A DNA stretch of 64,000 bases from Spirochaetota bacterium. Its GTDB lineage: Bacteria > Spirochaetota > UBA4802 > JAFGDQ01. Under the pieces are notes generated by a model. It was not told where the DNA came from. It saw only the letters and a list, made by a program, of their open reading frames with translations, and ran no database searches. Both the position numbers and the translations under genes were made by a program. How positions within the stretch are numbered: the stretch's first letter is position 1; each line of letters begins with the position of its first letter. The stretch spans positions 33,361 through 97,360 of the forward strand of contig JAFGSG010000063.1 in NCBI GenBank assembly GCA_016934735.1. Reading direction: 5' to 3'. This document shows, piece after piece, positions 18,237 through 63,159 of this stretch.

Positions 18237-18270
18237 AAAATGCCTGCTGTTATAATGCAGCCGGCATTTT
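18237..18270 (-). terminator. Rho-independent terminator downstream of the amidotransferase-GXGXG gene. It separates the upstream operon from gltBD. Coordinates +/- 2 nt.
   Basis: aaaatgcc-tgctg-ttataa-tgcagcc-ggcatttt hairpin (8+4 bp) with T-tracts on both sides. Confidence 0.55.
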
Positions 18271-18305
18271 AAGCACCGCTTTTTATATGTTATTTGTTTT
18301 TTGTT

Positions 18306-20951: not shown

Positions 20952-21002
20952 GAAAAAACCTCGCTATATAACAGGTATGCGATTCACAAATGTTGTTTAT
21001 AT

Positions 21003-23925: not shown

Positions 23926-23935
23926 TTATATCCTC

Positions 23936-25521: not shown

Positions 25522-25642
25522 TGCTTTACTCCTCGCAGTGTCTTTTAATAAATCATCTTAACTGATTTTCCCATTCCTAAAAGCATAAACGAATCGATAA
25601 AACAGTTAATTATTATAATATTATAAATAACAGTCAAAGCTT

Positions 25643-26023
25643 TCAGCCAAGTAATTCACGTGTTAGTTTATCAACTGTATAATTATTCCCGGCTTTGAGA
25701 CGGATAAGCTCAAGCATTCCGCGTTCAAGTCCGATTTCTTCGATCAAGTTCTGCGTATATAACAGTCTTTTTCGTGCGCGGATATTACCTTCTCTATAGC
25801 GGCACGCCCCTTCCGGGCATGTGACAACATAAACCTTATCCGCGCCGGATTCAATCGCGCGCATCAGGTGCAGCGGTTCTATCCGTCCGCTGCATGGAAT
25901 CGGAAAAAATCTGATCTGAGGTCCGAATTCTTTTTCAATGGAACGCCGGTTAACATCCTGATTTTTATCTATCTGCTGGCAAAAGAAAATTGCGTATTTT
26001 TTTCCTGCATTCGTTTTCTTCAT
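25643..26023 (-). CDS. mvhD: MvhD/FlpD-like [2Fe-2S] hydrogenase-delta-type electron-transfer protein.
   Basis: PCSGRIEP...GADKVYVVTCPEGACRYREGN signature of the FlpD/MvhD family. 126 aa. Confidence 0.7.
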   Translation of the reverse strand: MKKTNAGKKYAIFFCQQIDKNQDVNRRSIEKEFGPQIRFFPIPCSGRIEPLHLMRAIESGADKVYVVTCPEGACRYREGNIRARKRLLYTQNLIEEIGLERGMLELIRLKAGNNYTVDKLTRELLG

Positions 26024-39297: not shown

Positions 39298-40385
39298 ATT
39301 TCATTTCCCGCTGAATTATCTTTCTCAATATTATTAAACTTATCCTGGCTGTCATTGGCAAATCCGATTATATTAAGACTGATCTTAGCAAATAACCTGA
39401 AATCGATTCCAGGGGGCTCCATTCCGTATAAATTTGAAGTGAACATTACATCAACGATTTCCTTGTATCTTAACAGATTATAATCGAATCTTATACGGTT
39501 AAGAAAATTTTTCCTTTTTAAATAAAAAATATGCGAATCCTGATGGAAATAATTATGATTGTAAAAACACTGATAAGATAACTCAAAGCTATTTCCGGAA
39601 TAGCCGAACATGCCACTCCCGGCATGCCCATAAGTGGATGCTTCAAAATTCTGTGAAAAGGTGCTTAAATAATACGCCGCCTCAATAAAAAATCCCTTGT
39701 AGATAAATCCTAGAACCGGTGAGTTTACAATATCCTGTTCAATCCTAACCGGATGAGTATCTTTATTAAGCTGTCCTCCTTTGTGATGATAATGATCAAA
39801 AAATTTGTAATAAAAATATTCCGAAAAATTATGTTTCAAAAGAAGACCTGCAGTAAATTCTTCCGGATGTTCTTCAGTGTCAAGTCTGATCCAGTCGAGA
39901 AAAACAGAAACATCAATTGTTTTCTTATGCAAAGTAAATTTTAATCCGGATGATACCGGTCTTTGCTCAAAGAAGAGAAATTCATTGTAAATCGTATTCG
40001 AATAACGCATTAAATTAGGAAAATTCCCGATAATAAATTCCGAGTCGTTCCATGGGAAAAATACCGCATTTATATAAGGATACATTTTTTCAGGTTGTTT
40101 ATCTTTACCATACTGTACATAAATATGTTTATACCAGCCTCCGGCATTAACCTGAAGGGGCGCAGTACTCACCTGAAGGTATGGTATAAATATATGGCCG
40201 AGGTTGGTCCTGCCAGGATAAGGATGGTCATCGTACTCAAGATTGGCAAGATCGATATACTGATCCAGTTGTATAGTTATTGAATTAATATGTTCCGAAG
40301 TAAAAATTTCAGCAAATAAATGAGGATATGATAAAAAATAAATAATAAAAAAAATAATTATTTTTAATTTTACTGGATTTGACAT
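39294..40385 (-). CDS. Secreted Tyr/Phe-rich hypothetical protein.
   Basis: N-terminal hydrophobic signal KLKIIIFFIIYFLSYPHLFA. No recognisable catalytic motif. Confidence 0.45.
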   Translation of the reverse strand: MSNPVKLKIIIFFIIYFLSYPHLFAEIFTSEHINSITIQLDQYIDLANLEYDDHPYPGRTNLGHIFIPYLQVSTAPLQVNAGGWYKHIYVQYGKDKQPEKMYPYINAVFFPWNDSEFIIGNFPNLMRYSNTIYNEFLFFEQRPVSSGLKFTLHKKTIDVSVFLDWIRLDTEEHPEEFTAGLLLKHNFSEYFYYKFFDHYHHKGGQLNKDTHPVRIEQDIVNSPVLGFIYKGFFIEAAYYLSTFSQNFEASTYGHAGSGMFGYSGNSFELSYQCFYNHNYFHQDSHIFYLKRKNFLNRIRFDYNLLRYKEIVDVMFTSNLYGMEPPGIDFRLFAKISLNIIGFANDSQDKFNNIEKDNSAGNEM

Positions 40386-40482
40386 AAAGGATTTCTTTTC
40401 ATTATTCTTTCAAATGATTATACCCGGCTTTTTTTACAAGACTATAAGTTATCACAAAAATAAATTTTTTCCTGATAATAAT

Positions 40483-41646
40483 TTAGTGCGCATCCTTATG
40501 AATATTGTCAATAATAGCCTGTACAGCCGGATTTATAAATACGATGCTGACTTTATAATCACCGTCAAAACAGCGGTCAAGGGCGCGGTTTATTATCCGC
40601 ATCGGATCAAGCAGAAATGAAAAAATTGTGCCGTAAACGCTGTTGGGCATACAATTTTCAATGTATATGCTGGTCTGATGGAACGCCTCGCCCGCGAGTG
40701 CTCCACCGAATGCAGTAAAGACCATGTCGTTGCCGGAAGTCTGCTCGCGCCATTCACCGATATACTCCCAAATTAAGCTGCCGGTGAATGCCCACGCGGT
40801 TGAAGCAAGTATTCCATACTCATTGCTGCGCGCAGTCTGATAATAAACTGCGCCGGCATAAATATGATAGATCGTATTTGTCCTGAACGCGTTCGAATCC
40901 CAATACCAGCCGTCGCGGAAGCGCGGTCCGACGTCTTTCCACCTGTATTTATAACGCCAGTCTTCCATGTTAGCATCTTTATTGATCCAGTAATTTGCCA
41001 TGCCTACTCCTGTTAATAAAGTAAGTTCGCTGAGAGTTCTTACGAAACGATGAGTAGGTGAAAATCCGGTATTGACGATAAGTTCATAGCCGCTTACATT
41101 CGATATATTGTCATCTTCATATATCACACTTACTTTCTCGATAGCGCCGGGAAAGCCAGCCGTACCTGCTTCAGCAAGGGCATCAGGGATCGTTGAAGTT
41201 CGCACTGCCTCTGCAAAGGCGATCATGCTACGGATGGACTTTTCTGTGCGGTAGGTATCTTCACGCGGCACATCCCATCCGATCAGGACATTACGCTTAA
41301 ACGAATCAACAGAAAACAGATTAAACGAAGCCGGTTTGGCACCGTCCTTTTCTTTTTCTTTTAAACCGCTCATAAGAGAGAAATCGAAGTTAGTATAGGT
41401 TCGCTTGCTATTGATATCAGAAAACGGGATATATTCTGCTGAAAAATTATTACCGGTAAAAAACCCGGAATCGAGCATTGTTTTCAGCACAGGAAAATTC
41501 ACCGCAGTATCGGTTAAAATAATCTTCCTGCTTTTACTGTCTTCAGCATAGGCGCAATACGCGCTAAACGCAATGAACAGTAATATTGATACTGTCTTAT
41601 ATAGATAAAATTTAAATAAATGGCCTTGCACTCTGTATTGCTCCAT
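40483..41646 (-). CDS. Secreted Trp-rich hypothetical protein; possible paralog of the 38338-39297 gene.
   Basis: Signal peptide. W-rich segments WRYKYRWKDVGPRFRDGWYWDSNAF, similar in character to the 38338 gene product. Confidence 0.45.
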   Translation of the reverse strand: MEQYRVQGHLFKFYLYKTVSILLFIAFSAYCAYAEDSKSRKIILTDTAVNFPVLKTMLDSGFFTGNNFSAEYIPFSDINSKRTYTNFDFSLMSGLKEKEKDGAKPASFNLFSVDSFKRNVLIGWDVPREDTYRTEKSIRSMIAFAEAVRTSTIPDALAEAGTAGFPGAIEKVSVIYEDDNISNVSGYELIVNTGFSPTHRFVRTLSELTLLTGVGMANYWINKDANMEDWRYKYRWKDVGPRFRDGWYWDSNAFRTNTIYHIYAGAVYYQTARSNEYGILASTAWAFTGSLIWEYIGEWREQTSGNDMVFTAFGGALAGEAFHQTSIYIENCMPNSVYGTIFSFLLDPMRIINRALDRCFDGDYKVSIVFINPAVQAIIDNIHKDAH

Positions 41647-41648
41647 AC

Positions 41649-42974
41649 CTAAAAATAATTTCTAAATTCGATTATTAGCCGGTTCCAGTCATGAGTCCTG
41701 GTTTTATCATAAAGCATGCTCTCTATCTTCCAACGCTCATACTGAATGCTCATTATGACATCAGAAGTAATATAATACCCCATAGATCCCTTGAATATAT
41801 GAAGCATATCATATAAATCATCCGAGATAACCGGAAAGAAAAAATAATAATTATAACCGGCTTCAAAACGGAATCCGTAAACATGATCCGCACAAAGTAC
41901 AAGCCGTACGGGCAGAGTATAACTGAAGTAGTAATTCTGTTTGCGATACTTTATTGAACGAAATGCCGGGCTCATGTCCTGTTCTTCCTCTTCTGTAATA
42001 CCTGCATAGAAAAGCGAAGAAGGTCCGACGCCCATTCCTGCTCCCAGCATTATTCCTGCCGAATATAAAGCCGGCCCGTTCCTACGGGAAATGAGCATAT
42101 TCAACTGTAAAGCGCGCCAGATCGCGTATTGAATATAAGGCTGCGTATGCGTAACAGGCCTGTCCCATTTCATAGTTGAGTCGCTGAAGCCCGGCCTGAA
42201 ATATTCAAGGCCATTAAAAAAACCGTACATGAAACGCGTGCCGTGTTCTGCTGAACCGAAATATTTATTTTTACCGTAAATCAGCAAATCAATATTGAAA
42301 AAATTTTCCCGTACTATGCTTGCCCAGTCTAAATAAACATTAAAGGCCGTATAATCGCCGAAGGCAAGAGTCGTGTCCCTGAGCAATATCCTTGCCGAAG
42401 GATCGTATTCAAGCTGCCAGGACAAATGCAGGTTCCCCTTGGCATATGCAGGAAAAAACTCTCTGCCGTCATGAGTACGGGAATAACCGAATGAGAATAT
42501 AGAGGAAAAAGCCCTGCGGAAATCGCCAATGCCCTTCTCCGCCGCTGCGAACGGTACAACTACGGAAAGAGCATGTTCGCGCAGACGGCTGTCATCACTG
42601 ACAATACTGCCCGGAAGCCTTAAGACTTTCTGCGTCTGTACTCCATTCTTACTAATCGCAACTGTAAAATTATAAAGCCCGGCATCATATACAGTCTCAA
42701 TCTTCAACAGCATCTCGTCATAACGGCCCCCCAGCCGGAAAGCCATTATTTGACTGCCGTCTATCGTTGTGATCCATCCGAATTTTTTTAAAAAATCACT
42801 GCATTGATTTACTAAATATTCAGTTCTCTCTTCAGGGGAAACAATCTTTTTTTGGGTAATTTCTTTGTTAATTGCCGATTCTTTGGACTCTGGATATAAA
42901 GGAACACTATTGAATAAAAGAATAAAAGAGATCAAAAAAAATAGACTTACTTGAATCGCGGATTTCATTTTCAT
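41649..42974 (-). CDS. Putative outer-membrane beta-barrel protein.
   Basis: Signal peptide MKMKSAIQVSLFFLISFILLFNSVPLYP. Alternating aromatic strands. C-terminal ...EFRNYF with a terminal Phe, typical of OMP beta-barrels. Confidence 0.45.
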   Translation of the reverse strand: MKMKSAIQVSLFFLISFILLFNSVPLYPESKESAINKEITQKKIVSPEERTEYLVNQCSDFLKKFGWITTIDGSQIMAFRLGGRYDEMLLKIETVYDAGLYNFTVAISKNGVQTQKVLRLPGSIVSDDSRLREHALSVVVPFAAAEKGIGDFRRAFSSIFSFGYSRTHDGREFFPAYAKGNLHLSWQLEYDPSARILLRDTTLAFGDYTAFNVYLDWASIVRENFFNIDLLIYGKNKYFGSAEHGTRFMYGFFNGLEYFRPGFSDSTMKWDRPVTHTQPYIQYAIWRALQLNMLISRRNGPALYSAGIMLGAGMGVGPSSLFYAGITEEEEQDMSPAFRSIKYRKQNYYFSYTLPVRLVLCADHVYGFRFEAGYNYYFFFPVISDDLYDMLHIFKGSMGYYITSDVIMSIQYERWKIESMLYDKTRTHDWNRLIIEFRNYF

Positions 42975-50766: not shown

Positions 50767-51222
50767 TTATCTGTTCCTCCACTCTCTCTGCATTTCTCGG
50801 TCCACATCCCTTTTCTGAATTGCCCTTCTTTTATCATACTTCGCTTTTCCTTTTCCCAATCCCAGCAGGACTTTTATTTTCCCGTTCTTAAAATACATCT
50901 GAAGCGGGACAAGAGTCAGCCCCTTTTCCTTTAATTTTCCCGTTAGCCTTTTTATTTCCTGTTTATGCAGCAATAGTTTTCTATCCCTGAGCGGTTCATG
51001 ATTAAAACGGTTGCCTTTCTCGTATTCTGAAATATTAACATTCACAATGAACATCTCACTGTTTATAATTCTCGCATAACCGTCTTCGATGTTAGCTTTT
51101 TTCATACGAAGAGCTTTTACTTCAGTTCCGGTCAGTACAATACCTGCCTCAAATGTATCCAGTATTTCGTATTCAAACCGCGCTTTTTTATTATTCACAA
51201 TCTGCACAACTTTTTCCTGCAT
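50767..51222 (-). CDS. smpB: SsrA-binding protein.
   Basis: N-terminus NKKARFEYEILDTFEAGIVLTGTEVKALR. 151 aa. Confidence 0.9.
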   Translation of the reverse strand: MQEKVVQIVNNKKARFEYEILDTFEAGIVLTGTEVKALRMKKANIEDGYARIINSEMFIVNVNISEYEKGNRFNHEPLRDRKLLLHKQEIKRLTGKLKEKGLTLVPLQMYFKNGKIKVLLGLGKGKAKYDKRRAIQKRDVDREMQREWRNR

Positions 51223-51405: not shown

Positions 51406-52983
51406 ATGTTAGAGAATACTGATAAAATCCTGAAAGTGCTTATTGTCGAAGATCAAAAATCAAGTGATATTTTTTTAACTGAACTTTTATTAAAGTCAAA
51501 AAGCTATACTTTTGCCATTGAGTCCGTGGATTCTCTCTCTACCGCTATTGAAAAACTGGAGACCGTCAAATTTGATATTATACTTCTGGATCTGAACCTG
51601 CCGGACAGCACAAATCTGAATACACTGAATGCCATAATTACGAAAAATCCTTCAGTACCCATTATTGTAATAACAGGTAAATATGCAGATGATATAAGTT
51701 CCCAAGCAATTTCGTGCAGAGCACAGGACTTTCTCGTTAAGGGAGATTTTGACGGCAACCTGCTTGATAAAACAATAGGTTTTGCAATTGAGCGGAAAAT
51801 TTTAGAAAGGAATATGATCAATAAAGAACGGGAATTCAGAATGATGATCGAAAACGGATCGGATATAATTTCAATAATCGGCACTGACGGACTCATTTTA
51901 TATAAAAATCCGTCTGTAAAAAACCAGCTTGAATATGACCCGATTGATTTGATAGGCAGAAATATTTTCAGATTCATCCATCCTGATGACAAGCAAATAC
52001 TGATAAACGAATATACTGGCCTTATAAAAAACCTATATTCCACTCTTGTGAAGGAATATAGATTTAAAACTAAAAATAATTCATGGCGCATACTGGAATC
52101 AAAATTTAACCCCATATTTGATGAACACGGCAGCGTGTCGTGCGTAATTATTAATTCAAGAGATATAACTGAACGGAAACAAGCTGAAGATGAAATAAAG
52201 ACACATAAAAACAATCTTGAGGAATTAATTAAAGAACGGACTTTTGAGCTTATGTATTCGCGGGAAATGTCGGAAGCTGCCAATAGGGCAAAAAGCGAAT
52301 TTATTGCCAACATGAGCCATGAGCTTAGAACTCCCCTGAATTCGATAATCGGATTCTCCAAATTAATGGAAACAGGATATAATCCTGATACTTATTATGA
52401 TTATCTCGATAACATAAAAAATTCGGGGTCCCGTCTTCTTGAAATGATTAATAATATTTTAGACCTTATTAAAATTGATGCCGGAAAAATTAAATTCAAA
52501 AAAAGGCCTGTTAGAATAGATACAATTATTAATTCCTGCATTAATACCATCAGAGAAACAACAGAAATGAAAAATCGAAGAATAGAATATATAAACGATA
52601 ACGGCAATCCGGAGATTCTCGGAGATGAAAGCAGACTGGAGCAAATGTTCCTACAGCTTCTATCCAATGCCGTTAAATTTACACAAAATGATGGCCTTAT
52701 AAAAATCGACAGCCGAATAAAAAGTAAGTCTATTGAAGTCAATATTACCGATAATGGAATAGGGATAAAAACAGAATTCCAAAGTCGCATTTTTAACGCG
52801 TTTCAAATGGGGGAACTGGGATTAATTCGGGAAAATAAGGGAGCAGGCATTGGCCTGAGTATTGTAAAAAAAATTATCGATGCCCACGACGGATTGATCT
52901 CAATAATAAGCAAAGAAGGCAAAGGCAGCACATTCATAATCACTATTCCCATAATCACAGCGCAAGTCACGAATCATCATTAA
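51406..52983 (+). CDS. Receiver-PAS-histidine kinase (REC-PAS-HisKA-HATPase_c).
   Basis: Receiver VLIVEDQ...LLDLNLPDS. H-box FIANMSHELRTPLNSIIGF. GAGIGLSIVKKII. Confidence 0.85.
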   Translation: MLENTDKILKVLIVEDQKSSDIFLTELLLKSKSYTFAIESVDSLSTAIEKLETVKFDIILLDLNLPDSTNLNTLNAIITKNPSVPIIVITGKYADDISSQAISCRAQDFLVKGDFDGNLLDKTIGFAIERKILERNMINKEREFRMMIENGSDIISIIGTDGLILYKNPSVKNQLEYDPIDLIGRNIFRFIHPDDKQILINEYTGLIKNLYSTLVKEYRFKTKNNSWRILESKFNPIFDEHGSVSCVIINSRDITERKQAEDEIKTHKNNLEELIKERTFELMYSREMSEAANRAKSEFIANMSHELRTPLNSIIGFSKLMETGYNPDTYYDYLDNIKNSGSRLLEMINNILDLIKIDAGKIKFKKRPVRIDTIINSCINTIRETTEMKNRRIEYINDNGNPEILGDESRLEQMFLQLLSNAVKFTQNDGLIKIDSRIKSKSIEVNITDNGIGIKTEFQSRIFNAFQMGELGLIRENKGAGIGLSIVKKIIDAHDGLISIISKEGKGSTFIITIPIITAQVTNHH

Positions 52984-53010
52984 TTCATTAATTTATACGG
53001 AGATTAAATA

Positions 53011-54285
53011 ATGACCGCAAAAACGGAGAAACTATCAACTAATAGCCAAAATATAATTCACCCTAAAAATCCCATTTTAATACTTGAAGATGTGAAGGAA
53101 AATCAGATTCTCTTAAAAGAGCTTTGCAGGAATATGGGGCTTCCCAGCGAAATCGCAGAAAACGGGCAGGAAGGGCTTGACATCATTGAGGAAAAAACTT
53201 TTTCCATTTTTATTGTAGATTTAATGATGCCTGTAATGGACGGAAAAACATTTATTAAAAAGCTTAAACAAAAAATACCCAATGCAGTTATACTTATTCA
53301 AACCGCACTGGACTCCTCTGAAACCATCATAGAAATCATGAAATTAGGTGTTTTTGATTATATTATCAAACCATTGGATCCTGAAGTATTCCAGAAAGTT
53401 ATTAAAAAAAGCATTGAATACAAACATCTGAAAGATATGGAAAAAGACTTAGCAGACAGTGCGCCGCTTAAAATACGCAATCAGCTCGAATGGCTTAATT
53501 ACAAAGAAGACAGGAGAATAACTGCAAAGGATTATGCCGAGATTAAATCAATATATAATCTAAAAACTTCATTAATGCAGGGAAAGGGATTCGGATCTCT
53601 TCTCAGCATAATTGATATTATTCTAAACACAAAAAAAGAAAAGGGAGCAGATTACTTAATAAATAAAGAATTACTTGATCTGCTGCTTGATAATTACGAA
53701 ACATGCAACACCCAGTTGAACTGGCTTCATGAAATTTCAAATTTACTCGAAAACTTATTTGTTGTAAAAGAAAGCGACTCAGCTGAATTAATCGCAGCAA
53801 TACCCGGCATGTTAACTGAAGTTGCTCCTTACATGAAGAATAAAAATCTAAAAATAACATTCCCTGAGCTTAATACAAAGTGCAGATTGAATTTAAACCT
53901 TGAAAAAATGTCTTTAATAATTGAGGAACTTATTATCAATGCCTATAAATATTCCGTCACCGGAAGCGTTATCAATATATTTTCTTATATTAAAGAAGCA
54001 TATTTATGGATTTGCGTAATGAATGAAGTAAGTGAAAAACCATATGGCGGGATTCCCCAAAAATACGAAAAGCTTGTTCTTGAACCGTTTTTCAGAGTAG
54101 CGCCTCCTGACGAAAGCATCAGCAAAGTAGAAAAATTCAGCCTCGGCCTTGGATTAACGGTTGTCGATAACATAACCAGAAAGCATGGCGGCTTGTTCCT
54201 GATACAGGATGTCAGAAACCATATAGACAATCAGACCAAACTCAGCGTGCTTGCACAAATTATGCTACCTGTTGTTGTTGAATAA
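53011..54285 (+). CDS. Receiver domain protein with a C-terminal HATPase_c-like domain and no recognisable H-box.
   Basis: Receiver ILILEDV...IVDLMMPVMDG. C-terminal GLGLTVVDNITRKHGG ATP-lid-like segment. No HExxxP motif in the linker. Confidence 0.65.
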   Translation: MTAKTEKLSTNSQNIIHPKNPILILEDVKENQILLKELCRNMGLPSEIAENGQEGLDIIEEKTFSIFIVDLMMPVMDGKTFIKKLKQKIPNAVILIQTALDSSETIIEIMKLGVFDYIIKPLDPEVFQKVIKKSIEYKHLKDMEKDLADSAPLKIRNQLEWLNYKEDRRITAKDYAEIKSIYNLKTSLMQGKGFGSLLSIIDIILNTKKEKGADYLINKELLDLLLDNYETCNTQLNWLHEISNLLENLFVVKESDSAELIAAIPGMLTEVAPYMKNKNLKITFPELNTKCRLNLNLEKMSLIIEELIINAYKYSVTGSVINIFSYIKEAYLWICVMNEVSEKPYGGIPQKYEKLVLEPFFRVAPPDESISKVEKFSLGLGLTVVDNITRKHGGLFLIQDVRNHIDNQTKLSVLAQIMLPVVVE

Positions 54286-54292: not shown

Positions 54293-56248
54293 TTAGCTAT
54301 AACCTCCGGATGAAATAACTTTACGCAAACTGTTTTTTACAGCGAATATCCCTCCAAATGATATTAAAATTGTTCCAAGCCAGACAAGCCACACGAACCT
54401 TTTAAATGATACCTCTACTATAACGGCATCCGGATGGACAATTGTATTTACCCCAAGCTTTTTCAGCTTGCCATCAGCGCCTGTTTTTTTCTCAATTCCA
54501 CCCGGGCTTCCTTTATATTCCACGGGGGATATATAAATATCTTTAAAAAATCCATAATCTACATAAGGCTCTCTGATAATAGTATCCATCTTTTCGCATA
54601 TATAGTAAGGAGTTTGTATTTCATTTACTTTCTTATTTTTAAGATACTCAAATTTTAATTTGTCTAATCCCGGCTTTTCCAAACCCTTAAAAATTAATTT
54701 TATTGAACCTATCTCGGATTCAATATTTTTTATCAGAATTTTTTGAATTGAATATGAATGCAGATTCGAACTGATTATGCCGAGAATCAAAAGTCCAAGT
54801 CCAAGATGCGCCAAACGCGATGCTGCTGAATAAGACGATCTTTGCATTACAATTTCCGGAACATGCTGAATTATTATAAAAAAAGCCAGAATTGATAAGA
54901 TATAAGAAGATAAATCTGATGTATAAAAAAGATTGAAAAACACTCCGCAGACAAGAGACAGAAAAGATATTATTATCAGACTGATAAACCTTCTCTTTTT
55001 CGGAGTCCTGTAAATTCCTGCGATGATTATTGTTGCTAAAATTAATATTCCGAAAGGCTTTGAAATACCATTATAGAATTTCACGGTTACGGCAGATGCA
55101 TTTGTTAAAAAAATTTGCGATATAACAGGCATTGAAGTTCCGATTAAAACAAAAAACGAATAAAATGAAAGCAGGATAATCCCATAATTTACTATATTAA
55201 TTTCTGATAATATTTTATCTTCAAACGGAACTGTTTTAATATTCCGGCATCTTATTAATAACAAAGAAATGCCAACAATAAAAAAGATAAAAATATATAA
55301 TAATAACCAGCTATTTGACTCAAGTCCGCTGAATGAATGGACGGAAAAATCGGATAATATTCCGCTTCTTGTAAGGAAAGTGGCATAAAAAACCAGCACA
55401 AGGCTTATAACAGCGAGAAAAAGGTTCGTTTTAATTAATAGATCCTTCTTTTTTTGCAGAATAAGCCCATGCATCAGCGCAATCATTGTCAGCCATGGTA
55501 TAAGCGACGAATTCTCAACCGGATCCCAGCCCCAGTACCCGCCCCATCCGAGAACCTTATATGCCCAGTAAGCTCCGAGGAATATTCCGATACCGAGGCT
55601 TGCCACGCAAAAAACTACCCACTTATACGTTTTCAATACCCAATCCGAATAATCATTTCTTATAAGTCCCGCTATTGCGTATGCAAACGGAACACTGGCA
55701 GATGCGTATCCCAGAAAAAGCACAGGAGGATGAATTATCATCCATGGATTTTGCAGCAGAGGATTCAGCCCTGACCCATCAACCGGAATTTGGTTAGGCA
55801 AAATATTGATATTAGTCTGCCATATGGATTCAAAAGGACTATGCTTGAATAAAAGAATTAATAAAAATATTTGAGTCAGAATAATAACAGACGATACTAT
55901 ATCTGAAAAATCATCTTTTATTCTTTTAATTATTGCGCCGATTATAAAAAGAAAAAATACCCACAGAAGAAATGTGCCCTCCTGTCCTGCCCAGAAGGCA
56001 GCAGCCTTATAAATAACATGCAAATCTTTAGATGAATAATTATAGACATAGCTGAAATCAAATCTGTCTGTAAGGAATGCCGTAAAAAGAAGAACTACTG
56101 AAAAAGCAATCAACAAACCGGATGCATAAAATAATATATCCAATGCTTTTGGATATTCTTTTTTTAAAACGAGAATTATACAATTAAAAACAAACAGGAT
56201 CGAAGACACTACAAGCGAAGACACAATTAAAAAAGTACCGATATGCAT
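54293..56248 (-). CDS. ccmF: Cytochrome c-type biogenesis protein CcmF (haem lyase component).
   Basis: WWD domain GWGGYWGWDPVEN. 651 aa polytopic membrane protein. Confidence 0.8.
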   Translation of the reverse strand: MHIGTFLIVSSLVVSSILFVFNCIILVLKKEYPKALDILFYASGLLIAFSVVLLFTAFLTDRFDFSYVYNYSSKDLHVIYKAAAFWAGQEGTFLLWVFFLFIIGAIIKRIKDDFSDIVSSVIILTQIFLLILLFKHSPFESIWQTNINILPNQIPVDGSGLNPLLQNPWMIIHPPVLFLGYASASVPFAYAIAGLIRNDYSDWVLKTYKWVVFCVASLGIGIFLGAYWAYKVLGWGGYWGWDPVENSSLIPWLTMIALMHGLILQKKKDLLIKTNLFLAVISLVLVFYATFLTRSGILSDFSVHSFSGLESNSWLLLYIFIFFIVGISLLLIRCRNIKTVPFEDKILSEINIVNYGIILLSFYSFFVLIGTSMPVISQIFLTNASAVTVKFYNGISKPFGILILATIIIAGIYRTPKKRRFISLIIISFLSLVCGVFFNLFYTSDLSSYILSILAFFIIIQHVPEIVMQRSSYSAASRLAHLGLGLLILGIISSNLHSYSIQKILIKNIESEIGSIKLIFKGLEKPGLDKLKFEYLKNKKVNEIQTPYYICEKMDTIIREPYVDYGFFKDIYISPVEYKGSPGGIEKKTGADGKLKKLGVNTIVHPDAVIVEVSFKRFVWLVWLGTILISFGGIFAVKNSLRKVISSGGYS

Positions 56249-56279
56249 AAAGAATTCTCCGAAAAATTAAAACCGCACC

Positions 56280-56654
56280 CTATTGAACCTTGCTGTATTT
56301 TGAAGGACATTTAACCAAAATTTTATTTGCTTTAAAAATATTTTTCTCCCTGATGTAACTCCCCTGCACCACTATTTGATCCGCTTCCTCCATATTGTTG
56401 GGTTTTACACCTTTATACTGTACATTTAATAAATAACCATCAGCATCGTTAAGATTAAAAATTAAAAATCCTTCTTCGTATTTTATCAGCTTTAATTTAT
56501 TGATTTTTCCAATCACCTGAACATGATTTCCTGACTCAATTGCTTCTTTAAACGATACATAAGGCGTAATTATATTATCCATCGAATAAATCGAATAAAG
56601 TGCAATGCCTGCGCTTAAAATTAAAATACAAATTATGATTATTTTATTTCTCAT
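56280..56654 (-). CDS. ccmE: Haem chaperone CcmE, variant with a C-terminal CxxxY haem-binding motif.
   Basis: N-terminal TM anchor plus OB-fold length. C-terminus ...ILVKCPSKYSKVQ, i.e. C-P-S-K-Y where E. coli has H-D-E-N-Y. Confidence 0.7.
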   Translation of the reverse strand: MRNKIIIICILILSAGIALYSIYSMDNIITPYVSFKEAIESGNHVQVIGKINKLKLIKYEEGFLIFNLNDADGYLLNVQYKGVKPNNMEEADQIVVQGSYIREKNIFKANKILVKCPSKYSKVQ

Positions 56655-56868
56655 CCAGCTTTTTTTCTAATCCTTTCACTTTTCTGTTTAAATAAAAAAG
56701 ATACAGGCTAAGTGCGATCCATGTCAATAGAACTATCAGCATCACCTTAAAGATCACTGCACTGTTATCTGCGGAATTGATTGTGCCGGAATCAGCAGCA
56801 AGAAAATCCTTTAATAAAAAGAAAACAACAACAGTAAAGATAATTATAATATGATCAATTCTTTTCAT
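56644..56868 (-). CDS. ccmD: CcmD-like small single-TM protein.
   Basis: 74 aa. One TM helix. Positioned between ccmC and ccmE. C-terminal charged tail. Confidence 0.45.
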   Translation of the reverse strand: MKRIDHIIIIFTVVVFFLLKDFLAADSGTINSADNSAVIFKVMLIVLLTWIALSLYLFYLNRKVKGLEKKLDEK

Positions 56869-57526
56869 ATTCTTTTTCTTTGATCCTTTGATGAATTTTT
56901 GACAATCTGCCGGCTATGGAAAGCAAATAAAAAAATAAGAAAGTAAAACTCACTGATGATGCTAATAAAGTAATTTTCATTCTATCATCTAATTTAACTG
57001 CAATATCCGGATTAATTATTGTATCTGGATGAAGAGACGTATATACTCTGGGAACGATAAATATTAAAAACGGTACAGCGGCCATAGCGATAACAAGATA
57101 TGATGATGCAAGCTTTCCACGGGAAGGATTATCCGCGAGGGCAGTGCTAAGGCTGAAATACGCAACATATATTAGCAGTAGAATAATAATCGAAGTCTGG
57201 CGGGGATCCCAATTCCAGTACGCGCCCCAGCTTATCTTTGACCATAGTGAGCCTGTGATTACTGTCAGGATCATAAAAATCATTCCTAAAACCGCGGAGT
57301 TATACGCCTTCTCATCAATAAGAAAAAATTTTTTTTTCTTATCATACAAATATATTATTGAATAAACTCCTGAAATAATAAAAGCAAGAGTAGATACCCA
57401 GGCTAGCGGAACATGAAAATATAATATCCTGCCCGCATCTCCCAGGATTTCAGCAGGCGGCGCCCACATGAAAGCCAGGTAAATTGAAAGCGGCATCAGA
57501 AAATAAAAAAAATTTAATATTATCAT
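56855..57526 (-). CDS. ccmC: Haem exporter protein CcmC.
   Basis: WWD motif WGAYWNWDPRQTS. About 220 aa, multi-TM. Confidence 0.8.
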   Translation of the reverse strand: MIILNFFYFLMPLSIYLAFMWAPPAEILGDAGRILYFHVPLAWVSTLAFIISGVYSIIYLYDKKKKFFLIDEKAYNSAVLGMIFMILTVITGSLWSKISWGAYWNWDPRQTSIIILLLIYVAYFSLSTALADNPSRGKLASSYLVIAMAAVPFLIFIVPRVYTSLHPDTIINPDIAVKLDDRMKITLLASSVSFTFLFFYLLSIAGRLSKIHQRIKEKEYEKN

Positions 57527-57580
57527 TCTAATTAGAATTTAACCGTAACTGTTCAGGTATCCTTAGCAGTTGCATTTAAT

Positions 57581-58285
57581 CTATTCTTCAAGCCAAATGT
57601 GTGCAAATAATAAATACGATATTACCGTAATTACTACGGAATATGCAAACAGAAAAATAATATTATTACTGCCCTCGCAGCCGGTTTTACTTAAGGCAAT
57701 AAATGTAGAGTCGACTGATGTCCAGATGACGGGAAGGACAACAGGGAAAGAAATAACAGTAAAGAGCGGCCCTTTACCTTTCGCTTTTGCAGTTATAGCT
57801 GCCAGTATGGCAGTCGAGGCCGACATCGCAAGGCCGCCCGCGAACATTGTTAAGATAAAAGAACTCAGCGATTTAATGTCCAGCTGTAAAAAAAATATAT
57901 ATAAAGGAATTATTACAATCTGTAAAATTAAAAATAAGGTGACATTAAACAAAAGCTTTGAAGCAAAAATAACATCCGGCTTTGCGTTTAATCTTAAAAA
58001 AAGCGCAGTCTCCTGTTCCTCTTCTCTTGTAAAAATATGCGGAAGCCCGCTCATCGCGCTGAAAAATAATATTATCCATAATATTATTGCCTGAATTTTT
58101 TGAGGAATCAGAATACCGCCTGATGCAAGACTTATTGAAAGAGTAGAAATTACAGCGAACGAAATTGATACATAGATAGAATATCGGTTTCTGAATTCTA
58201 CCATGTAGTCTTTTTTAAGATTCTCAAAAACGCGTTTTTTCAAGATTGATCCTGCTATCACAAATGCCAGCCTCTTCATTTTCAT
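57581..58285 (-). CDS. ccmB: Haem exporter permease CcmB. The start may be at an internal Met near 58204, because the track ORF overlaps ccmA by 62 nt.
   Basis: About 6 predicted TM helices. Position after ccmA. Confidence 0.65.
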   Translation of the reverse strand: MKMKRLAFVIAGSILKKRVFENLKKDYMVEFRNRYSIYVSISFAVISTLSISLASGGILIPQKIQAIILWIILFFSAMSGLPHIFTREEEQETALFLRLNAKPDVIFASKLLFNVTLFLILQIVIIPLYIFFLQLDIKSLSSFILTMFAGGLAMSASTAILAAITAKAKGKGPLFTVISFPVVLPVIWTSVDSTFIALSKTGCEGSNNIIFLFAYSVVITVISYLLFAHIWLEE

Positions 58286-58868
58286 TAAATGCGATAATTA
58301 CGATCTTTTGAGATTTAACAGATTCTACAAGAGAATATACAGCATCCTTTCCATTATTGTCAAGGTTTGAAGTTGGTTCATCAAGAATCAGTATATGCGG
58401 ATTATGAAGGAAAGCGATTATTAATCGCATTCTTTGCTTCATGCCGGAAGAATAATATTTCAGTCTTTTATTCCTGTCATTGTATAAATCAAATTTATTC
58501 AGAAGACCGTTAAATCGTTCCACAAAACATTTTTTATTATTGCTATTGCTGATAAATGAATTAAATGCAAATTCGAGATTCTCAAGAGCGGTCAGCTCTC
58601 CATAAGGATTTATTTTCGGACTGGAGAAACCAATGTGATCCCGAATGCAGGATATTCCCGCTTCAGTGCCGTCTGCCTCGCATATCAGTTCACCTGATGT
58701 CGGCTTCTGTATACCCGCGATTATCTCCAGTAAAGTCGATTTGCCTGAACCATTCTGTCCGATTACCGCAAGTGATTTCGATGTACTTATTGAGAATTCC
58801 ATATTTTGAAATACGGTATGACTGCCGTATCTCTTTGCGAGGCTCTTTGCTTTAATATTTACTAACAT
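58224..58868 (-). CDS. ccmA: Haem exporter ATP-binding protein CcmA.
   Basis: Walker A GQNGSGKSTLL. ABC signature SSGMKQR. Walker B LILDEP. Confidence 0.8.
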   Translation of the reverse strand: MLVNIKAKSLAKRYGSHTVFQNMEFSISTSKSLAVIGQNGSGKSTLLEIIAGIQKPTSGELICEADGTEAGISCIRDHIGFSSPKINPYGELTALENLEFAFNSFISNSNNKKCFVERFNGLLNKFDLYNDRNKRLKYYSSGMKQRMRLIIAFLHNPHILILDEPTSNLDNNGKDAVYSLVESVKSQKIVIIAFNENEEAGICDSRINLEKTRF

Positions 58869-58929
58869 TTGTTAAATCGACTTTTTAATTTTTAGCAAAT
58901 CCCTGTTTCCGGAAGTATTAATATAAAAT

Positions 58930-58955
58930 GGGCTGTTAAAAGGTTTCAACAGCCC
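58930..58955 (-). terminator. Rho-independent terminator after flgE. Coordinates +/- 2 nt.
   Basis: gggctgtt-aaaaggtttc-aacagccc, an 8-bp perfect stem with an A/T-rich flank on both sides. Confidence 0.5.
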
Positions 58956-58989
58956 ATCATTAAAATTAAAATTTATAACTCAATAATAC

Positions 58990-60363
58990 TTACCTTTTAA
59001 GATTTATCAGTTCCTGAAGCATCTGATCCGATGTCACTATTGTTCTCGAGTTAGCCTGGAATCCGCGCTGTGTAATAATCATGTCGGTAAACTGCTCGGA
59101 AAGATCAACGTTAGACATTTCAAGCGTCCCTGCCGCTATCTTGCCTCTGCCCGCTTCCGAAGCAGCACCGATGTTCGGCGTGCCGGAGTTATTCGATGTT
59201 TCGAAGAGATTCTCGCCGTTAGCAGTCAGCCCGCCCGGATTTGTAAATACCGCCATACCTACCTGGCCTATAGTTTCCTTTGTGCCGTTGGAATACACTC
59301 CTGTTATAACACCGGAATCATCAATATTGAATGCCTCCATGTATCCCATGGTAAACCCGTTCTGCTCAACTGCTTTTGTAGTTGATGGGCTGGAGTATTG
59401 AGTAATGCCCTCAACAAGTCCTGCCTTGCCTAAATCCATTGCTATATTTCTGACAGTAGGATCCCCGGCGACCCTGTATTTAAAATTAACCGCTATGCTA
59501 CCCTGGTTTAGTTCGTCCGGGCTTCCTTCATCCGCTGCGGAGATAAGCCTTCCGTCAGGAGAAAAGCGCAGATTCATCCTGTTGGATGTATTAGTCTGGT
59601 CCGGCTGGTTTGCTCCCGCGGTTACATCAAGAGTAACGGGGCCGATAGAGCCTGTAATTGCAGCTGATGCAGTCCACTGATTGGGCGCTGTTTTCCAGAA
59701 TGTAAGAGTAAGCCTGTGCGGATCACCCAGCTTGTCATACACATCAATGTTGGTAGTTACTCCTGCCGAAGCCCTCATCGCACCTGTGGCATTCAAAGGT
59801 ATCACAGGCATCTTGGAATCAAGATTACATTTATATTTTATATAATCAGTTTCTTTTGCTTCAACCTTTCCGTAAATAGGTACTATTAAATCTTCTACAG
59901 TTCCGGAAGTATTAACGACTTTTTCGCCTCTTTCGTTTCTTGTTGCCATCCAGCCCTGAACCCTTAATCCGTTTGCCGGACTTACCATTGTACCGTCTTT
60001 ATCCAGCGTAAAATTTCCGGCTCTTGTATAGTATTTTTTATCGCCCTTTGCTGTTATAAAAAAACCGTCACCTGATATTGCCAGGTCAGTCTGATTGCCT
60101 GTTGTCTGCAGGCTTCCCTGAGTGAAAAGCCTGTCAATCGAAGCTATCATCATTCCAAGGCCGACCTGTTTTGGATTCACGCCTCCCTTATTCTCTTCCG
60201 GCTTCGCTGCGCCTGCGATGGTCTGCGACAGCATATCCTGGAAAGTTACTCTGCTAGTTTTAAACCCGTATGTGTTTACATTGGAGATATTGTTGCCGAC
60301 AACGTCCATCCTGGTTTGATGGTTTTTTAATCCGGATACACCGGAAAAAAGTGATCTCATCAT
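58990..60363 (-). CDS. flgE: Flagellar hook protein.
   Basis: N-terminus MMRSLFSGVSGLKNHQTRMDVVGNNISNVNTYGFK. C-terminus ...TSDQMLQELINLKR. Confidence 0.9.
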   Translation of the reverse strand: MMRSLFSGVSGLKNHQTRMDVVGNNISNVNTYGFKTSRVTFQDMLSQTIAGAAKPEENKGGVNPKQVGLGMMIASIDRLFTQGSLQTTGNQTDLAISGDGFFITAKGDKKYYTRAGNFTLDKDGTMVSPANGLRVQGWMATRNERGEKVVNTSGTVEDLIVPIYGKVEAKETDYIKYKCNLDSKMPVIPLNATGAMRASAGVTTNIDVYDKLGDPHRLTLTFWKTAPNQWTASAAITGSIGPVTLDVTAGANQPDQTNTSNRMNLRFSPDGRLISAADEGSPDELNQGSIAVNFKYRVAGDPTVRNIAMDLGKAGLVEGITQYSSPSTTKAVEQNGFTMGYMEAFNIDDSGVITGVYSNGTKETIGQVGMAVFTNPGGLTANGENLFETSNNSGTPNIGAASEAGRGKIAAGTLEMSNVDLSEQFTDMIITQRGFQANSRTIVTSDQMLQELINLKR

Positions 60364-60503
60364 GGCGATTTTGCTCCTGAATCAAAAAAAATTTTTAAAA
60401 ATTTATTTCTCTCAATCCCTTCTGGAAGCACGATTTCAAAATGATTTTTCTCAAATCGAACTTCTTCAGGAATTTTGCCCAGCACGTCAGGCGGGACTCA
60501 CTG

Positions 60504-61049
60504 TTAATTAACTTTACCCTGTCCGTCTGCCTTATTAGTATCGTTAGTTTTTATATTATCTTTAGCAGTATTATTATTGCTTTCATTTATTTTTCCGGTT
60601 TTATTATCAGGCTCATTTGTGTAAACAGCATGTATATCATTTAAACCGATTTCCCTTCCGTTTACCGTAAGTCTTATTTCGTTATTTTTATAAAATATAG
60701 AAGTTACAAGACCTTCAACCTTTATGCCGGTTACCGGATCAAATGCCTTTACGTTTTTCCCGAGCAGAGAATACGCTTCCGCTGATCTTGAGGTTTTATT
60801 AAGCTCCTGAACAGATTTGTTTACATTCGTCATCTGCTCCAGCGCGGAGAATTGTGCCATCTGAGATATGAACTCCTTATTCTCCATCGGCTGGGTCGGG
60901 TCCTGATGTCTAAGTTCAGTTACTAATAACTTTAAAAACGCATCCTTATCCAAATTTTCATTCCCAACCTTATTTTTCCTGGGGGAATTCATTATATTGA
61001 TATTTTCATTTTTTATAGAATTGTTAATCACTGCTGTATTATTTTCCAT
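60504..61049 (-). CDS. flgD: Flagellar hook capping / assembly protein.
   Basis: KDAFLKLLVTELRHQDPTQPMENKEFISQMAQFSALEQM. Confidence 0.8.
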   Translation of the reverse strand: MENNTAVINNSIKNENINIMNSPRKNKVGNENLDKDAFLKLLVTELRHQDPTQPMENKEFISQMAQFSALEQMTNVNKSVQELNKTSRSAEAYSLLGKNVKAFDPVTGIKVEGLVTSIFYKNNEIRLTVNGREIGLNDIHAVYTNEPDNKTGKINESNNNTAKDNIKTNDTNKADGQGKVN

Positions 61050-61070
61050 TGATAGCGCCTCCGTTATTCC

Positions 61071-62546
61071 TTATATTATTAAATCGATTTCGCCATTGTG
61101 CACATATAATGAATTCGACTCATATTCCGCACCTGCCGCAACCGTCTGCCTTCTGCCTGCTGAATGTAAAGCAGCTTCTTTGTTAAAATCGAATAACGAT
61201 TTCTTTTCATCTCTGACATTAACATTAAAATTCCCGACAGATATTCCGTCTTCCTGCAGCCTGTCTATTATAGTCTGAATATTTTCAAGAAGGGCTTCTT
61301 TAGCTTCTATGCTGTCCACTAAAAATCTGCCCATTACTACACCATGTTCAAGATTAAGGTTTACATTCACCCTGCCGAGAGATTCGGGATGCAGTCTTAT
61401 GGAAAAGCTCCCGTTGCCGCTGTCCCGAACTACTATTTTCGCGTTCAGCAAAATTGTATTCAGCTCATTGCCGAAAGAATTTCTTTTCTCAGCACCCGGG
61501 TTGCCGCTTTTTTGCAATACACCCGCACCTTCAATATCCTTTTTAAGAAAAGAGAAGCTAAAACTGGATGTGTTATCCCTTGCCTGCGATCCTTCGTTTT
61601 TATCACCAGCCGATATTTCGCTGAATAATTTCTGATTATTTATATCTTTATTTTCATTAAGAGATTCGAAATTTTTACTGATAACATTTTCAAGTTTTTG
61701 ATTATTTAAATGCTGTCTTATCTCATTAACCAGCCTGGAAATCTGTTTTTTTAAAATCCCGATATCTGATGATTCAATAATATTTTCCGGGTCTTTAATA
61801 TTGCGGGCATCATTGCTTCTAAAATTCTTATGGCCTATGCGTGCGTGCGCTGTCTCCAGCAGATTTCTTAATCTTTCGAGCATTTTTTTTAATTCATGCC
61901 CGTTTAAAGCAATGTGCGGATTTTTATCCGTAACAATATTTTTATTATTCTTTTGCTCAAGAAAATCTTTTAATTCCGAAAGCGTTGTCCTGATATCCTG
62001 GATCTGCTTCTTGTCAAAATGCAGGCCCTTAATCAGATTTAATAAAAAATTAATCTCTTTCAGCAGTACAGGAATATCATCACGAATATCTTCATTTTGA
62101 TTTTTTATTGTATTTTCCTGAGCGTTTTTCTGTATTCTTTCCTTTTGTTCTAATTTATCTTCGCTTTTATTTTTACTTTTTACGCCCGGTTCAGCATTAT
62201 CTGTTTTATGAATATCTTCCTGCCCGCTACTATGAAAACTATTATTTCCTCTAATTGTTTTATCATCATCTGCAATTTGTCTATTCCCGCCTTTAATTGA
62301 TGTATCCAGTCTTTCAAACGACGGATTTTCCGAATTATTTTTGTCTATATTAGATATGTCATTCTTTTCATGATTGATTATTTGATTCTCATTTGAATTT
62401 ACGCTGTAAAGATTATCCTGAAGAAAGCTGTCGAAACTCCGGGATGAGGCAGATAAATCTTTAATTAATCCGTTGAGATCCGACGGAGATGCCGAAGCTG
62501 AATTTCCTAAAGACTTTAATATACTGATACTGGAACAATACTGCAT
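61071..62546 (-). CDS. fliK: Flagellar hook-length control protein.
   Basis: Low-complexity N/K-rich body. Conserved Flg_hook C-terminal region SFSIRLHPESLGRVNVNLNLEHGVVMGRFLVDS. Position upstream of flgD-flgE. Confidence 0.7.
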   Translation of the reverse strand: MQYCSSISILKSLGNSASASPSDLNGLIKDLSASSRSFDSFLQDNLYSVNSNENQIINHEKNDISNIDKNNSENPSFERLDTSIKGGNRQIADDDKTIRGNNSFHSSGQEDIHKTDNAEPGVKSKNKSEDKLEQKERIQKNAQENTIKNQNEDIRDDIPVLLKEINFLLNLIKGLHFDKKQIQDIRTTLSELKDFLEQKNNKNIVTDKNPHIALNGHELKKMLERLRNLLETAHARIGHKNFRSNDARNIKDPENIIESSDIGILKKQISRLVNEIRQHLNNQKLENVISKNFESLNENKDINNQKLFSEISAGDKNEGSQARDNTSSFSFSFLKKDIEGAGVLQKSGNPGAEKRNSFGNELNTILLNAKIVVRDSGNGSFSIRLHPESLGRVNVNLNLEHGVVMGRFLVDSIEAKEALLENIQTIIDRLQEDGISVGNFNVNVRDEKKSLFDFNKEAALHSAGRRQTVAAGAEYESNSLYVHNGEIDLII

Positions 62547-62710: not shown

Positions 62711-63025
62711 TTATTGAAGTTTATTTTTTAATACATTCTCAGGCTGGGTACCAATCATTCTTTCAATCTCTTTCCCGTCTTCAAAAAGAATGAGTGTGGG
62801 TATTGACTGTATGGAATATTTGCCGGCGATTTCCTGATTTTCGTCAGTGTTTACTTTTACGATCTTTGCCTTAATTTCACCGGATTGTGTTAGTTTCTCG
62901 AGTATTGGAGACTGCATTCTGCAGGGGCCGCACCATGGAGCCCAGAAGTCTACAAGCACTTTTCCCTTTGCGTCCAAAACCTCTGTTTTAAAGTTATTGT
63001 TATTTATTTCAGTTAAATTTGCCAT
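62711..63025 (-). CDS. trxA: Thioredoxin. The start is placed at the Met preceded by an aggagg RBS. The track ORF extends to 63043.
   Basis: Active site WAPWCGPC. Confidence 0.9.
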   Translation of the reverse strand: MANLTEINNNNFKTEVLDAKGKVLVDFWAPWCGPCRMQSPILEKLTQSGEIKAKIVKVNTDENQEIAGKYSIQSIPTLILFEDGKEIERMIGTQPENVLKNKLQ

Positions 63026-63159
63026 AAATCCTCCTATTACCAATGTAACATATTTAAATTATCAGTAAAATTATAACAAGTGTCAAATATAATATTACTA
63101 AAACAATGTTAAAAATTACTAACGGAATACGCGATACCGGCCTTCAGATTAAATAAAAA

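Follow-up and report, generated by a model that had tools for sequence, protein, structure and literature searches.

The closest described counterparts of the locus presented here belong to System I*, a variant of the cytochrome c maturation (Ccm) machinery that has been known and experimentally studied since 2006-2010 (Allen 2006; Goddard 2010; Stevens 2011) and is widespread. In this variant a cysteine of CcmE binds haem covalently, and the system works without CcmH or CcmG (PMC3601427, PMC9084895). The lack of CcmH was part of the original description of System I*; it is not characteristic of it, since around one third of the bacteria with a Cys-type CcmE have CcmH (Stevens et al. 2011, PMC3601427). 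The taxa that Stevens et al. listed in 2011 were mainly delta-proteobacteria, Chloroflexi, and Firmicutes, and CPSKY is the majority motif of Cys-type CcmE in published work. The Desulfovibrio ccm operon works in Escherichia coli without CcmH or CcmG (PMC3601427). In archaea with a Cys-type CcmE, ccmG and ccdA lie at separate loci, and both are dispensable in Methanosarcina (PMC9084895). The haem-cysteine adduct on CcmE and the transfer of haem to CxxCH apocytochromes have been demonstrated for Desulfovibrio and Methanosarcina only (PMC3601427, PMC9084895). Our search of the literature on spirochaete CcmE and on the CPSKY motif found nothing specific to spirochaetes.

We analyzed a stretch of 64 kb from an uncultured Spirochaetota bacterium, hereafter the window, and found in it an intact ccmABCDEF operon with a Cys-type CcmE. 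Given how widespread the variant is, this is a correct but ordinary finding. By homology, we put at roughly 85% the probability that the operon encodes a working Ccm system of the System I* type. Its six contiguous ORFs, all intact and all matching their families, lie on the minus strand and span exactly positions 58868 to 54293 of the window in the canonical order ccmA-B-C-D-E-F, as the initial annotation had proposed. The NCBIfam equivalog scores fall below the curated cutoffs for all of them except CcmD, because these proteins diverge from the proteobacterial models.

The stop codon of ccmF (54293-54295) is 7 nt from that of a convergent plus-strand gene (53011-54285), which encodes a response-regulator receiver and HATPase protein, is not part of the system, and sets its 3' boundary; the earlier remark that a convergent gene directly follows ccmF, with no ccmGH attached, is thus borne out. 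Upstream, a terminator-like hairpin on the minus strand (58927-58958, with a 14-bp stem and then a T-rich tail) occupies part of the gap from the end of flgE to the beginning of ccmA, and a promoter-like TTGAAA-18-TATATT overlaps it. Both are consensus matches, and together they may set ccm apart from the flagellar genes. Horizontal acquisition of ccmABCDEF finds no support: its GC content (0.34-0.36) is the same as that of its neighbours and, among the matches listed, the closest relatives are all Spirochaetota.

The assignment to System I* depends first on CcmE (56280-56654, minus strand, 124 aa, PF03100 CcmE at 1.3e-14), which is annotated as such in the NCBI record. The protein has a membrane helix (residues 2-25), an OB-fold barrel (44-115), and a tail with the motif K115-C116-P-S-K-Y120, its C-terminus reading ...ILVKCPSKYSKVQ. 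The codons for C116 to Y120, computed from the ORF coordinates, are at 56297-56311 on the minus strand. The Cys-x3-Tyr motif noted initially is therefore present, although VKCPSKY stops four residues before the C-terminus and is not the end of the protein. HMMER aligned VKCPSKY onto AKH130DENY134 of E. coli CcmE (8ce8_E, 1sr3_A) and onto TKCP of the D. vulgaris CcmE structure (2kct_A). In this comparison with HxxxY and CxxxY references, which the initial annotation had put forward as a check, Cys116 fills the His130 column, where the canonical His-type CcmE has H-x3-Y, and Tyr120 that of Tyr134. A histidine a few residues away could in principle have taken the place of His130. However, the only histidine of CcmE is H44, far from the motif, so no nearby residue can replace it; the only other cysteine is C9, in the membrane helix. 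The KCPSKY motif, Cys116 included, is invariant in 120 out of 120 homologues and in an alignment of 33 homologues (A1). The AlphaFold model of CcmE (pLDDT 89.7) comprises the membrane helix, the OB barrel, and the C-terminal tail, with Cys116 directly after the last strand as in System I*, and its top PDB matches are CcmE structures (8ce8_E, 1lm0, 1sr3, 1j6q, 2kct).

The genes upstream of ccmE encode the putative haem-delivery module. The ABC ATPase subunit CcmA (58224-58868, minus strand, 214 aa, PF00005 ABC_tran at 2.5e-26) has a Walker A motif GQNGSGKST at residue 37, a signature SSGMKQR at 140, and a Walker B motif ILILDEP at 159. Its match to the ccmA model TIGR01189 (3.8e-27) is under the equivalog cutoff, as for all ABC hits, and its identity hence relies on its position in the operon. 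The longest ORF of ccmB, the ABC membrane subunit (57581-58285, minus strand, 234 aa, PF03379 CcmB at 3.6e-18), overlaps ccmA by 62 nt, which suggests that the true start may be later; CcmB has around 219 aa in relatives. In the WWD haem-handling protein CcmC (56855-57526, minus strand, 223 aa, PF01578 at 1e-25, TIGR01191 at 4.1e-33, 7f02_C at 2e-14), His38, the motif W100GAYWNWDPRQT, and His166 correspond in the alignment to His60, WWD, and His184 of E. coli, so that the WWD motif and the two flanking histidines expected of CcmABC(D) haem delivery in System I* are in place. CcmD (56644-56868, minus strand, 74 aa) matches the CcmD family model TIGR04391 with 29.4 bits, for a cutoff of 24, and has its helix and charged tail at residues 43-72, after a signal-peptide-like N-terminal extension. 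An alignment with the ORFs of spirochaete relatives revealed that this extension is common among them, a minor curiosity.

The last gene, ccmF (54293-56248, minus strand), encodes a putative haem lyase of 651 aa with matches to PF01578 (1.3e-34) and, at residues 319-638, to the CcmF_C domain (PF16327, 1.8e-13). Its WWD motif, W235GGYWGWDPVEN, is flanked by His173 and His304, while membrane helices contain His260 and His481: this is the set of WWD motif, two periplasmic histidines, and two membrane histidines expected of a System I* lyase. All four histidines align with histidines of Thermus CcmF (6zmq_A), which matches residues 48-578 at 1e-54. We take H173, H260, H304, and H481 to be equivalent to H173, H261, H303, and H491 of E. 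coli CcmF. The gene could instead encode a dedicated lyase of the NrfE or CcsA type. The best NCBIfam match of the protein is indeed the NrfE subfamily (TIGR03145, 269 bits, against 260 bits for the CcmF/NrfE model TIGR00353), and NCBI calls the product 'cytochrome c biogenesis protein CcsA'. However, the two scores are essentially equal and far under their cutoffs (927 and 569), nrfA, nrfF, and nrfG were not found nearby, and the window has neither the nrfF/nrfG genes nor the CxxCK nitrite reductase that would accompany an NrfEFG system. In System II (CcsBA), CcsA has around 300 aa, works with a CcsB partner, and there is no CcmE. Here, the protein is 651 aa long, carries CcmF_C, aligns with Thermus CcmF over 531 residues, lacks a CcsB partner, and is encoded by the last gene of a complete ccmABCDE-F operon. 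A dedicated lyase is therefore very improbable, the protein is best regarded as a general CcmF, and the NCBI 'CcsA' label is wrong.

In canonical System I, ccmG and ccmH follow ccmF in the operon, which is not the case here. Pfam searches of the ORFs of at least 90 aa, two giant ones excepted, identified no ccmG, ccmH, ccmI, or ccdA/dsbD in the 64-kb window, and neither a six-frame motif scan nor a tblastn probe identified ccmG, ccmH, ccmI, or ccdA; the CcmG probe had a positive control and the CcmH probe had none. Four six-frame matches to [LIVM]RCxxC (at 59026, 32030, 19828, and 21263) were rejected as CcmH, because they run antisense to flgE or carB, or else fall within or overlap genes of the glutamate-synthase-like kind. 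A thioredoxin (62711-63043) was rejected as CcmG: with 104-110 aa, a WCGPC motif, no membrane anchor, and a PF00085 match at 1.3e-30, it is a cytoplasmic TrxA. The initial annotation had taken a Cys-type CcmE together with the absence of CcmH as the definition of System I*. The assignment holds, given the cysteine in the His130 column, the CPSKY motif, and the lack of ccmGH in 64 kb, but the absence of CcmH does not define the class, as around one third of its bacterial members have CcmH.

To place the operon among its relatives, we compared the 80 closest CcmF loci among the matches listed, which number at least 80. A neighbouring CcmE was found at 67 of them, in every case with CPSKY or CPTKY. 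The 80 loci span at least eight phyla, including Spirochaetota, Acidobacteriota, Ignavibacteriota, Bacteroidota, Calditrichota, Chloroflexota, Bacillota, and Desulfobacterota, and the description of the variant as one of archaea and some sulfate reducers was thus too narrow. Far from being rare, the combination of a Cys-type CcmE and a stand-alone ccmABC(D)EF operon is, among the loci listed, the usual state in a very large clade. The same six-gene layout occurs in 8 of the 10 Spirochaetota-like loci listed (L001, L002, L004-L009), the other two (L003, L012) being incomplete. Some ORFs near ccm in these loci proved unrelated to it: a trio of around 300, 600, and 200 aa in L002 (seen also in L006) corresponds in L002 to NAD kinase, RecN, and a metallopeptidase, and ORFs of similar size in L008 are FrhB/POR subunits.

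These comparisons bear on whether the Cys-type CcmE serves an otherwise complete Ccm system, with ccmH and/or ccmG/ccdA elsewhere in the genome and needed, in which case the operon alone would not be CcmH-independent. Such an arrangement would have precedents in the one third of Cys-CcmE bacteria that have CcmH (Stevens et al. 2011, PMC3601427), in the separate ccmG and ccdA loci of Cys-CcmE archaea (PMC9084895), and in five Chloroflexota loci with a CPSKY CcmE where a CcmG-like ORF lies 1.3-1.5 kb downstream of ccmF; moreover, the absence of ccmG, ccmH, and ccdA covers 64 kb of the genome. Nevertheless, none of the 80 related loci listed has a CcmH-like ORF within 10 kb of ccmF, with the CcmH probe run without a positive control, and CcmG-like ORFs, searched with a positively controlled probe, are missing from the window and from the 10-kb flanks of every Spirochaetota locus listed. 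Besides, the Desulfovibrio operon is active in E. coli without these partners (PMC3601427), and Methanosarcina can do without ccmG and ccdA (PMC9084895). We thus consider a need for distant partners unlikely. The CcmF of this operon probably acts without a CcmH partner, as in the Desulfovibrio and Methanosarcina systems, and the six genes would then suffice.

The window contains no gene for a c-type cytochrome substrate, and CxxCH occurs in it just once, in a glutamate-synthase-like Fe-S protein that is cytoplasmic. The neighbouring genes (MetF/MetV/MvhD and glutamate-synthase-like Fe-S proteins) point to an anaerobe of a fermentative or acetogen-like type. Both observations would fit an operon that is a relic, or that serves haem export or detoxification in an organism making no c-type cytochromes. 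Yet the six ORFs are intact, every catalytic residue is conserved, and the operon is kept in Spirochaetota MAGs even though CcmF is no more than 40-47% identical (among the matches listed), which implies purifying selection. Relatives also tie it to cytochromes and haem: it adjoins a 5-haem cytochrome in L007 and a hemA-C-D-B-L cluster in L001. A relic or a haem exporter is hence scarcely credible, and the substrates of this cytochrome c maturation system are presumably encoded elsewhere in the genome. The finding suggests that c-type cytochromes are produced by the spirochaete MAGs carrying the operon, several of which come from anaerobic digesters and sediments. This is relevant to claims about how they contribute to extracellular or interspecies electron transfer. 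As it stands, the result adds Spirochaetota to the phyla carrying System I*, with little weight beyond bookkeeping. A broader reading is tentative, and we give it somewhat less than an even chance: ccmABCDEF would be all that this Spirochaetota lineage, probably an anaerobic one, uses to mature its c-type cytochromes, CcmH, CcmG, and CcdA being absent genome-wide, and the lineage-specific CcmD, which has a putative signal peptide and a variable periplasmic linker, might add a function beyond that of canonical CcmD. If true, this would extend CcmH-independent haem ligation and electron transfer by c-type cytochromes to a phylum usually deemed cytochrome-poor.

By analogy with the described systems, the machinery may work as follows. 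CcmC would bind haem in its WWD domain, with His38 on one side and His166 on the other, and present it to CcmE, the membrane-anchored periplasmic chaperone, where Cys116, in place of a histidine, would bond covalently to a haem vinyl and Tyr120 would provide the axial ligand. Release of holo-CcmE would fall to the CcmAB ATPase, with CcmD assisting. CcmF would then take the CcmE-borne haem into its own WWD domain (His173/His304), reduce it via a membrane b-haem (His260/His481), and ligate it to the CxxCH of Sec-exported apocytochromes.

Relative to canonical System I (E. coli CcmABCDEFGH, 8CE8/7F02; Thermus CcmF, 6ZMQ), the locus shares the six core proteins, their order, folds, and WWD/His residues, together with the tyrosine of CcmE (Tyr120, Tyr134 in E. 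coli). It differs by Cys116 in place of the haem-binding His130 and by ccmG and ccmH not following ccmF. The CcmABCEF1F2 system of Methanosarcina acetivorans (PMC9084895) also has a CxxxY CcmE, whose cysteine is needed for haem attachment in the archaeon, and lacks CcmH and CcmI, as does our window; its lyase works alone. However, archaea have no CcmD, a CcmF split in two genes, and scattered genes, whereas here CcmD is present and a single CcmF of 651 aa belongs to one operon. The System I* of Desulfovibrio desulfuricans/vulgaris (Allen et al. 2006 FEBS Lett; Goddard et al. 2010 JBC; 2KCT) differs in that it is from Desulfobacterota, whereas the Spirochaetota system is known from its genes alone, in canonical A-B-C-D-E-F order, with no CcmI-like TPR gene seen in the window and with a signal-peptide-like extension on CcmD. 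The sequence similarity to the 2KCT CcmE is also low, with a phmmer E of 0.0016 across 56 residues of the query. Like the locus described here, this system is bacterial and includes ccmD, lacks ccmH and ccmG in the operon, keeps the WWD motifs and histidines of CcmC and CcmF, and has the CcmE cysteine in a C-P-x-x-Y motif straight after the OB barrel.

Six contiguous ORFs on the minus strand fill positions 54293-58868. Pfam and NCBIfam profile matches identify them as CcmA (ABC_tran, 2.5e-26), CcmB (PF03379, 3.6e-18), CcmC (56855-57526; PF01578, 1e-25; TIGR01191, 4.1e-33), CcmD (56644-56868; TIGR04391, 29.4 bits versus a cutoff of 24), CcmE (PF03100, 1.3e-14), and CcmF (54293-56248; PF01578, 1.3e-34; CcmF_C, 1.8e-13). 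This is the canonical A-B-C-D-E-F order claimed by the initial annotation, which also placed a convergent gene directly after ccmF. Indeed, a response-regulator/HATPase gene (53011-54285, plus strand) faces ccmF with a stop-to-stop gap of 7 nt. Hybrid histidine kinase/response-regulator genes are unusually frequent in the window: its 64 kb contain six (17-2335, 6642-12127, and 51406-54285, plus strand), two of which face the 3' end of ccmF. The ccmA gene is directly preceded, in the same orientation, by a flagellar fliK-flgD-flgE operon (58990-62546). Between the end of flgE and the start of ccmA lies a hairpin resembling a terminator (58958-58927; 14-bp stem), by which the ccm genes look like a transcription unit of their own, as judged only from a consensus match. 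Taken at their longest, the ccmA and ccmB ORFs share 62 nt (58224-58285). The early start of ccmB may be genuine, since CcmB of the related locus L009 has a similar N-terminal extension (RRSLNFVIRGLIL versus MKRLAFVIAGSIL), although the extension may simply mirror the conserved 3' end of ccmA.

CcmE has 124 aa and ends in ILVKCPSKYSKVQ. In HMMER alignments, V-K-C116-P-S-K-Y120 falls on A-K-H130-D-E-N-Y134 of E. coli CcmE (8ce8_E, 1sr3_A), and V-K-C116-P also falls on T-K-C-P of the Desulfovibrio vulgaris CcmE structure 2kct_A. The initial annotation was correct in describing a ccm operon with a Cys-type CcmE. A nearby histidine aligning with His130 in place of the cysteine was considered, and it does not apply because H44 is the single histidine of the protein. 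The AlphaFold model (33 homologues in the alignment, mean pLDDT 89.7) predicts a membrane helix (2-25) followed by an OB-type barrel (strands 44-115), with Cys116 directly after the final strand, within a less ordered tail. Its top PDB matches are the CcmE structures 8ce8_E, 1lm0, 1sr3, 1j6q, and 2kct. KCPSKY was present in 120 of the 120 CcmE homologues among the matches listed, a figure biased by the word-indexed search, which prefers sequences containing that word. Scanning genomes with CcmF instead is free of this bias: CcmE adjoins CcmF in 67 of the best 80 loci listed, and carries CPSKY or CPTKY in all 67.

In CcmC, His38, WGAYWNWDPRQT, and His166 align with His60, the WWD motif, and His184 of the E. 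coli protein (7f02_C, 2e-14). Residues 48-578 of CcmF align with Thermus thermophilus CcmF (6zmq_A, 1e-54), with conservation of the WWD motif WGGYWGWDPVEN and of histidines 173, 260, 304, and 481, which correspond in E. coli CcmF to two periplasmic histidines and two that ligate the b-haem. From its sequence, the Ccm machinery looks catalytically intact. CcmE, CcmF, and FlgE are identical to MBN2402262, MBN2402261, and MBN2402267 of a Spirochaetes/Spirochaetota MAG in NCBI. CcmE is already correctly annotated there. CcmF bears the product name 'cytochrome c biogenesis protein CcsA', which we reject given the operon context, its CcmF_C domain, and its alignment with Thermus CcmF. Besides the separate ccmD gene downstream, CcmC itself gives a weak hit to the CcmD family model (TIGR04391, 19.3 bits versus a cutoff of 24) at residues 189-216, which form its last helix and charged tail.

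The CcmD ORFs of the window and five relatives (L001 9257-9622, L002 5836-6150, L005 3565-3912, L006 9308-9616, and L012 9257-9526) have 74-121 aa; canonical 'alt' CcmD models have around 36 aa. In these six, the CcmD helix is preceded by a signal-peptide-like N-terminal segment (e.g. MKRIDHIIIIFTVVVFFLL) and a variable, poorly conserved linker. The long form may be real, since CcmD of L005 has no internal Met where the alternative start would be.

Among the matches listed, the nearest CcmF are from Spirochaetota and Leptospirales MAGs (40-47% identity), followed by Calditrichota, Zixibacteria, Acidobacteriota, Ignavibacteriota, Bacteroidota, Chloroflexota, Bacillota, Desulfobacterota, and others. 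Of the ten Spirochaetota-like loci, eight (L001, L002, L004-L009) have ccmABC(D)EF and two (L003, L012) are incomplete; thioredoxin-like or LRCxxC neighbours are absent within 10 kb in all ten. In L007, a 452-aa c554/c7-like cytochrome with five CxxCH motifs (5762-7120) ends 7 nt before ccmA. In L001, the closest genome relative listed, a gene for a HemX-like Cytochrom_C_asm protein comes after ccmF, and next hemA, hemC, cobA/hemD, hemB, and hemL (12262-18687); haem maturation and tetrapyrrole synthesis genes thereby share a single cluster. Both neighbourhoods are compatible with a haem-handling, cytochrome-maturing role. The smpB gene immediately follows ccmF in L007 (12079-12537) and lies 3 kb downstream of it in the window (50767-51222), where two response-regulator/histidine-kinase genes intervene. 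Directly upstream of ccmA, L004 (6475-7125) and L009 (6844-7479) encode a protein of around 215 aa with two CDGSH iron-sulfur domains and Fer4_19, which is absent from the window.

Pfam scans of all window ORFs of at least 90 aa, except two giant ones, matched no CcmG, CcmH, CcmI, or CcdA/DsbD, and no c-type cytochrome. The lone CxxCH of the window sits in a cytoplasmic glutamate-synthase-domain Fe-S protein, and each [LIVM]RCxxC hit in the six frames lies within an unrelated gene or antisense to one. We also ran a rough BLAST probe with approximate E. coli CcmG and CcmH sequences. With the former, the Spirochaetota loci and the window gave no CcmG-like ORF other than a cytoplasmic TrxA (62711-63043); its positive control came from five Chloroflexota loci (L051, L061, L066, L071, and L074), each with a CcmG-like thioredoxin ORF 1.3-1.5 kb downstream of ccmF. 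With the latter, which had no positive control, no CcmH-like ORF was found in the window or the 80 loci. Since the five Chloroflexota loci have a CPSKY-type CcmE, Cys-CcmE and CcmG loss are not strictly coupled. Some thiol-redox or CcmH partner encoded elsewhere in the genome is conceivable, if rather unlikely.

Elsewhere in the window, a minus-strand block (12122-26023; GC of 0.43-0.49 versus 0.29-0.39 across most of the window) encodes a GltD-like protein, a 1511-aa ORF presumed to be GltB, three glutamate-synthase-domain/GXGXG Fe-S proteins, MetF (MTHFR), MetV (DUF5981), and MvhD/FlpD. The block is reminiscent of an electron-bifurcating MTHFR/oxidoreductase module of the anaerobe type. Four successive minus-strand ORFs (38338-42974) have signal-peptide-like N-termini; one matches DUF2279 (predicted periplasmic lipoprotein), another DUF3943, and the remaining two gave no Pfam hit.

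Stevens et al. 2011 describe System I*, the Cys-CcmE variant of System I, in which the CcmE cysteine binds haem covalently; in E. coli, the operon from Desulfovibrio supports cytochrome c maturation with neither CcmH nor CcmG (PMC3601427). They also report CcmH in about one third of the bacteria with Cys-CcmE. In Methanosarcina, haem attachment to CcmE needs Cys120, and CcmABCEF suffice for maturation, ccmG and ccdA being dispensable (2022 eLife, PMC9084895). The window operon has all the sequence-level features of System I*, whereas it departs from canonical System I in the histidine, and identities as NrfEFG or CcsBA were rejected. The System I* classification of the initial annotation was essentially right. 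This variant has already been described and characterised by experiment, and it is evidently very widespread; what is new here is only the host phylum and a small oddity, the signal-peptide-like N-terminal segment and linker of CcmD.
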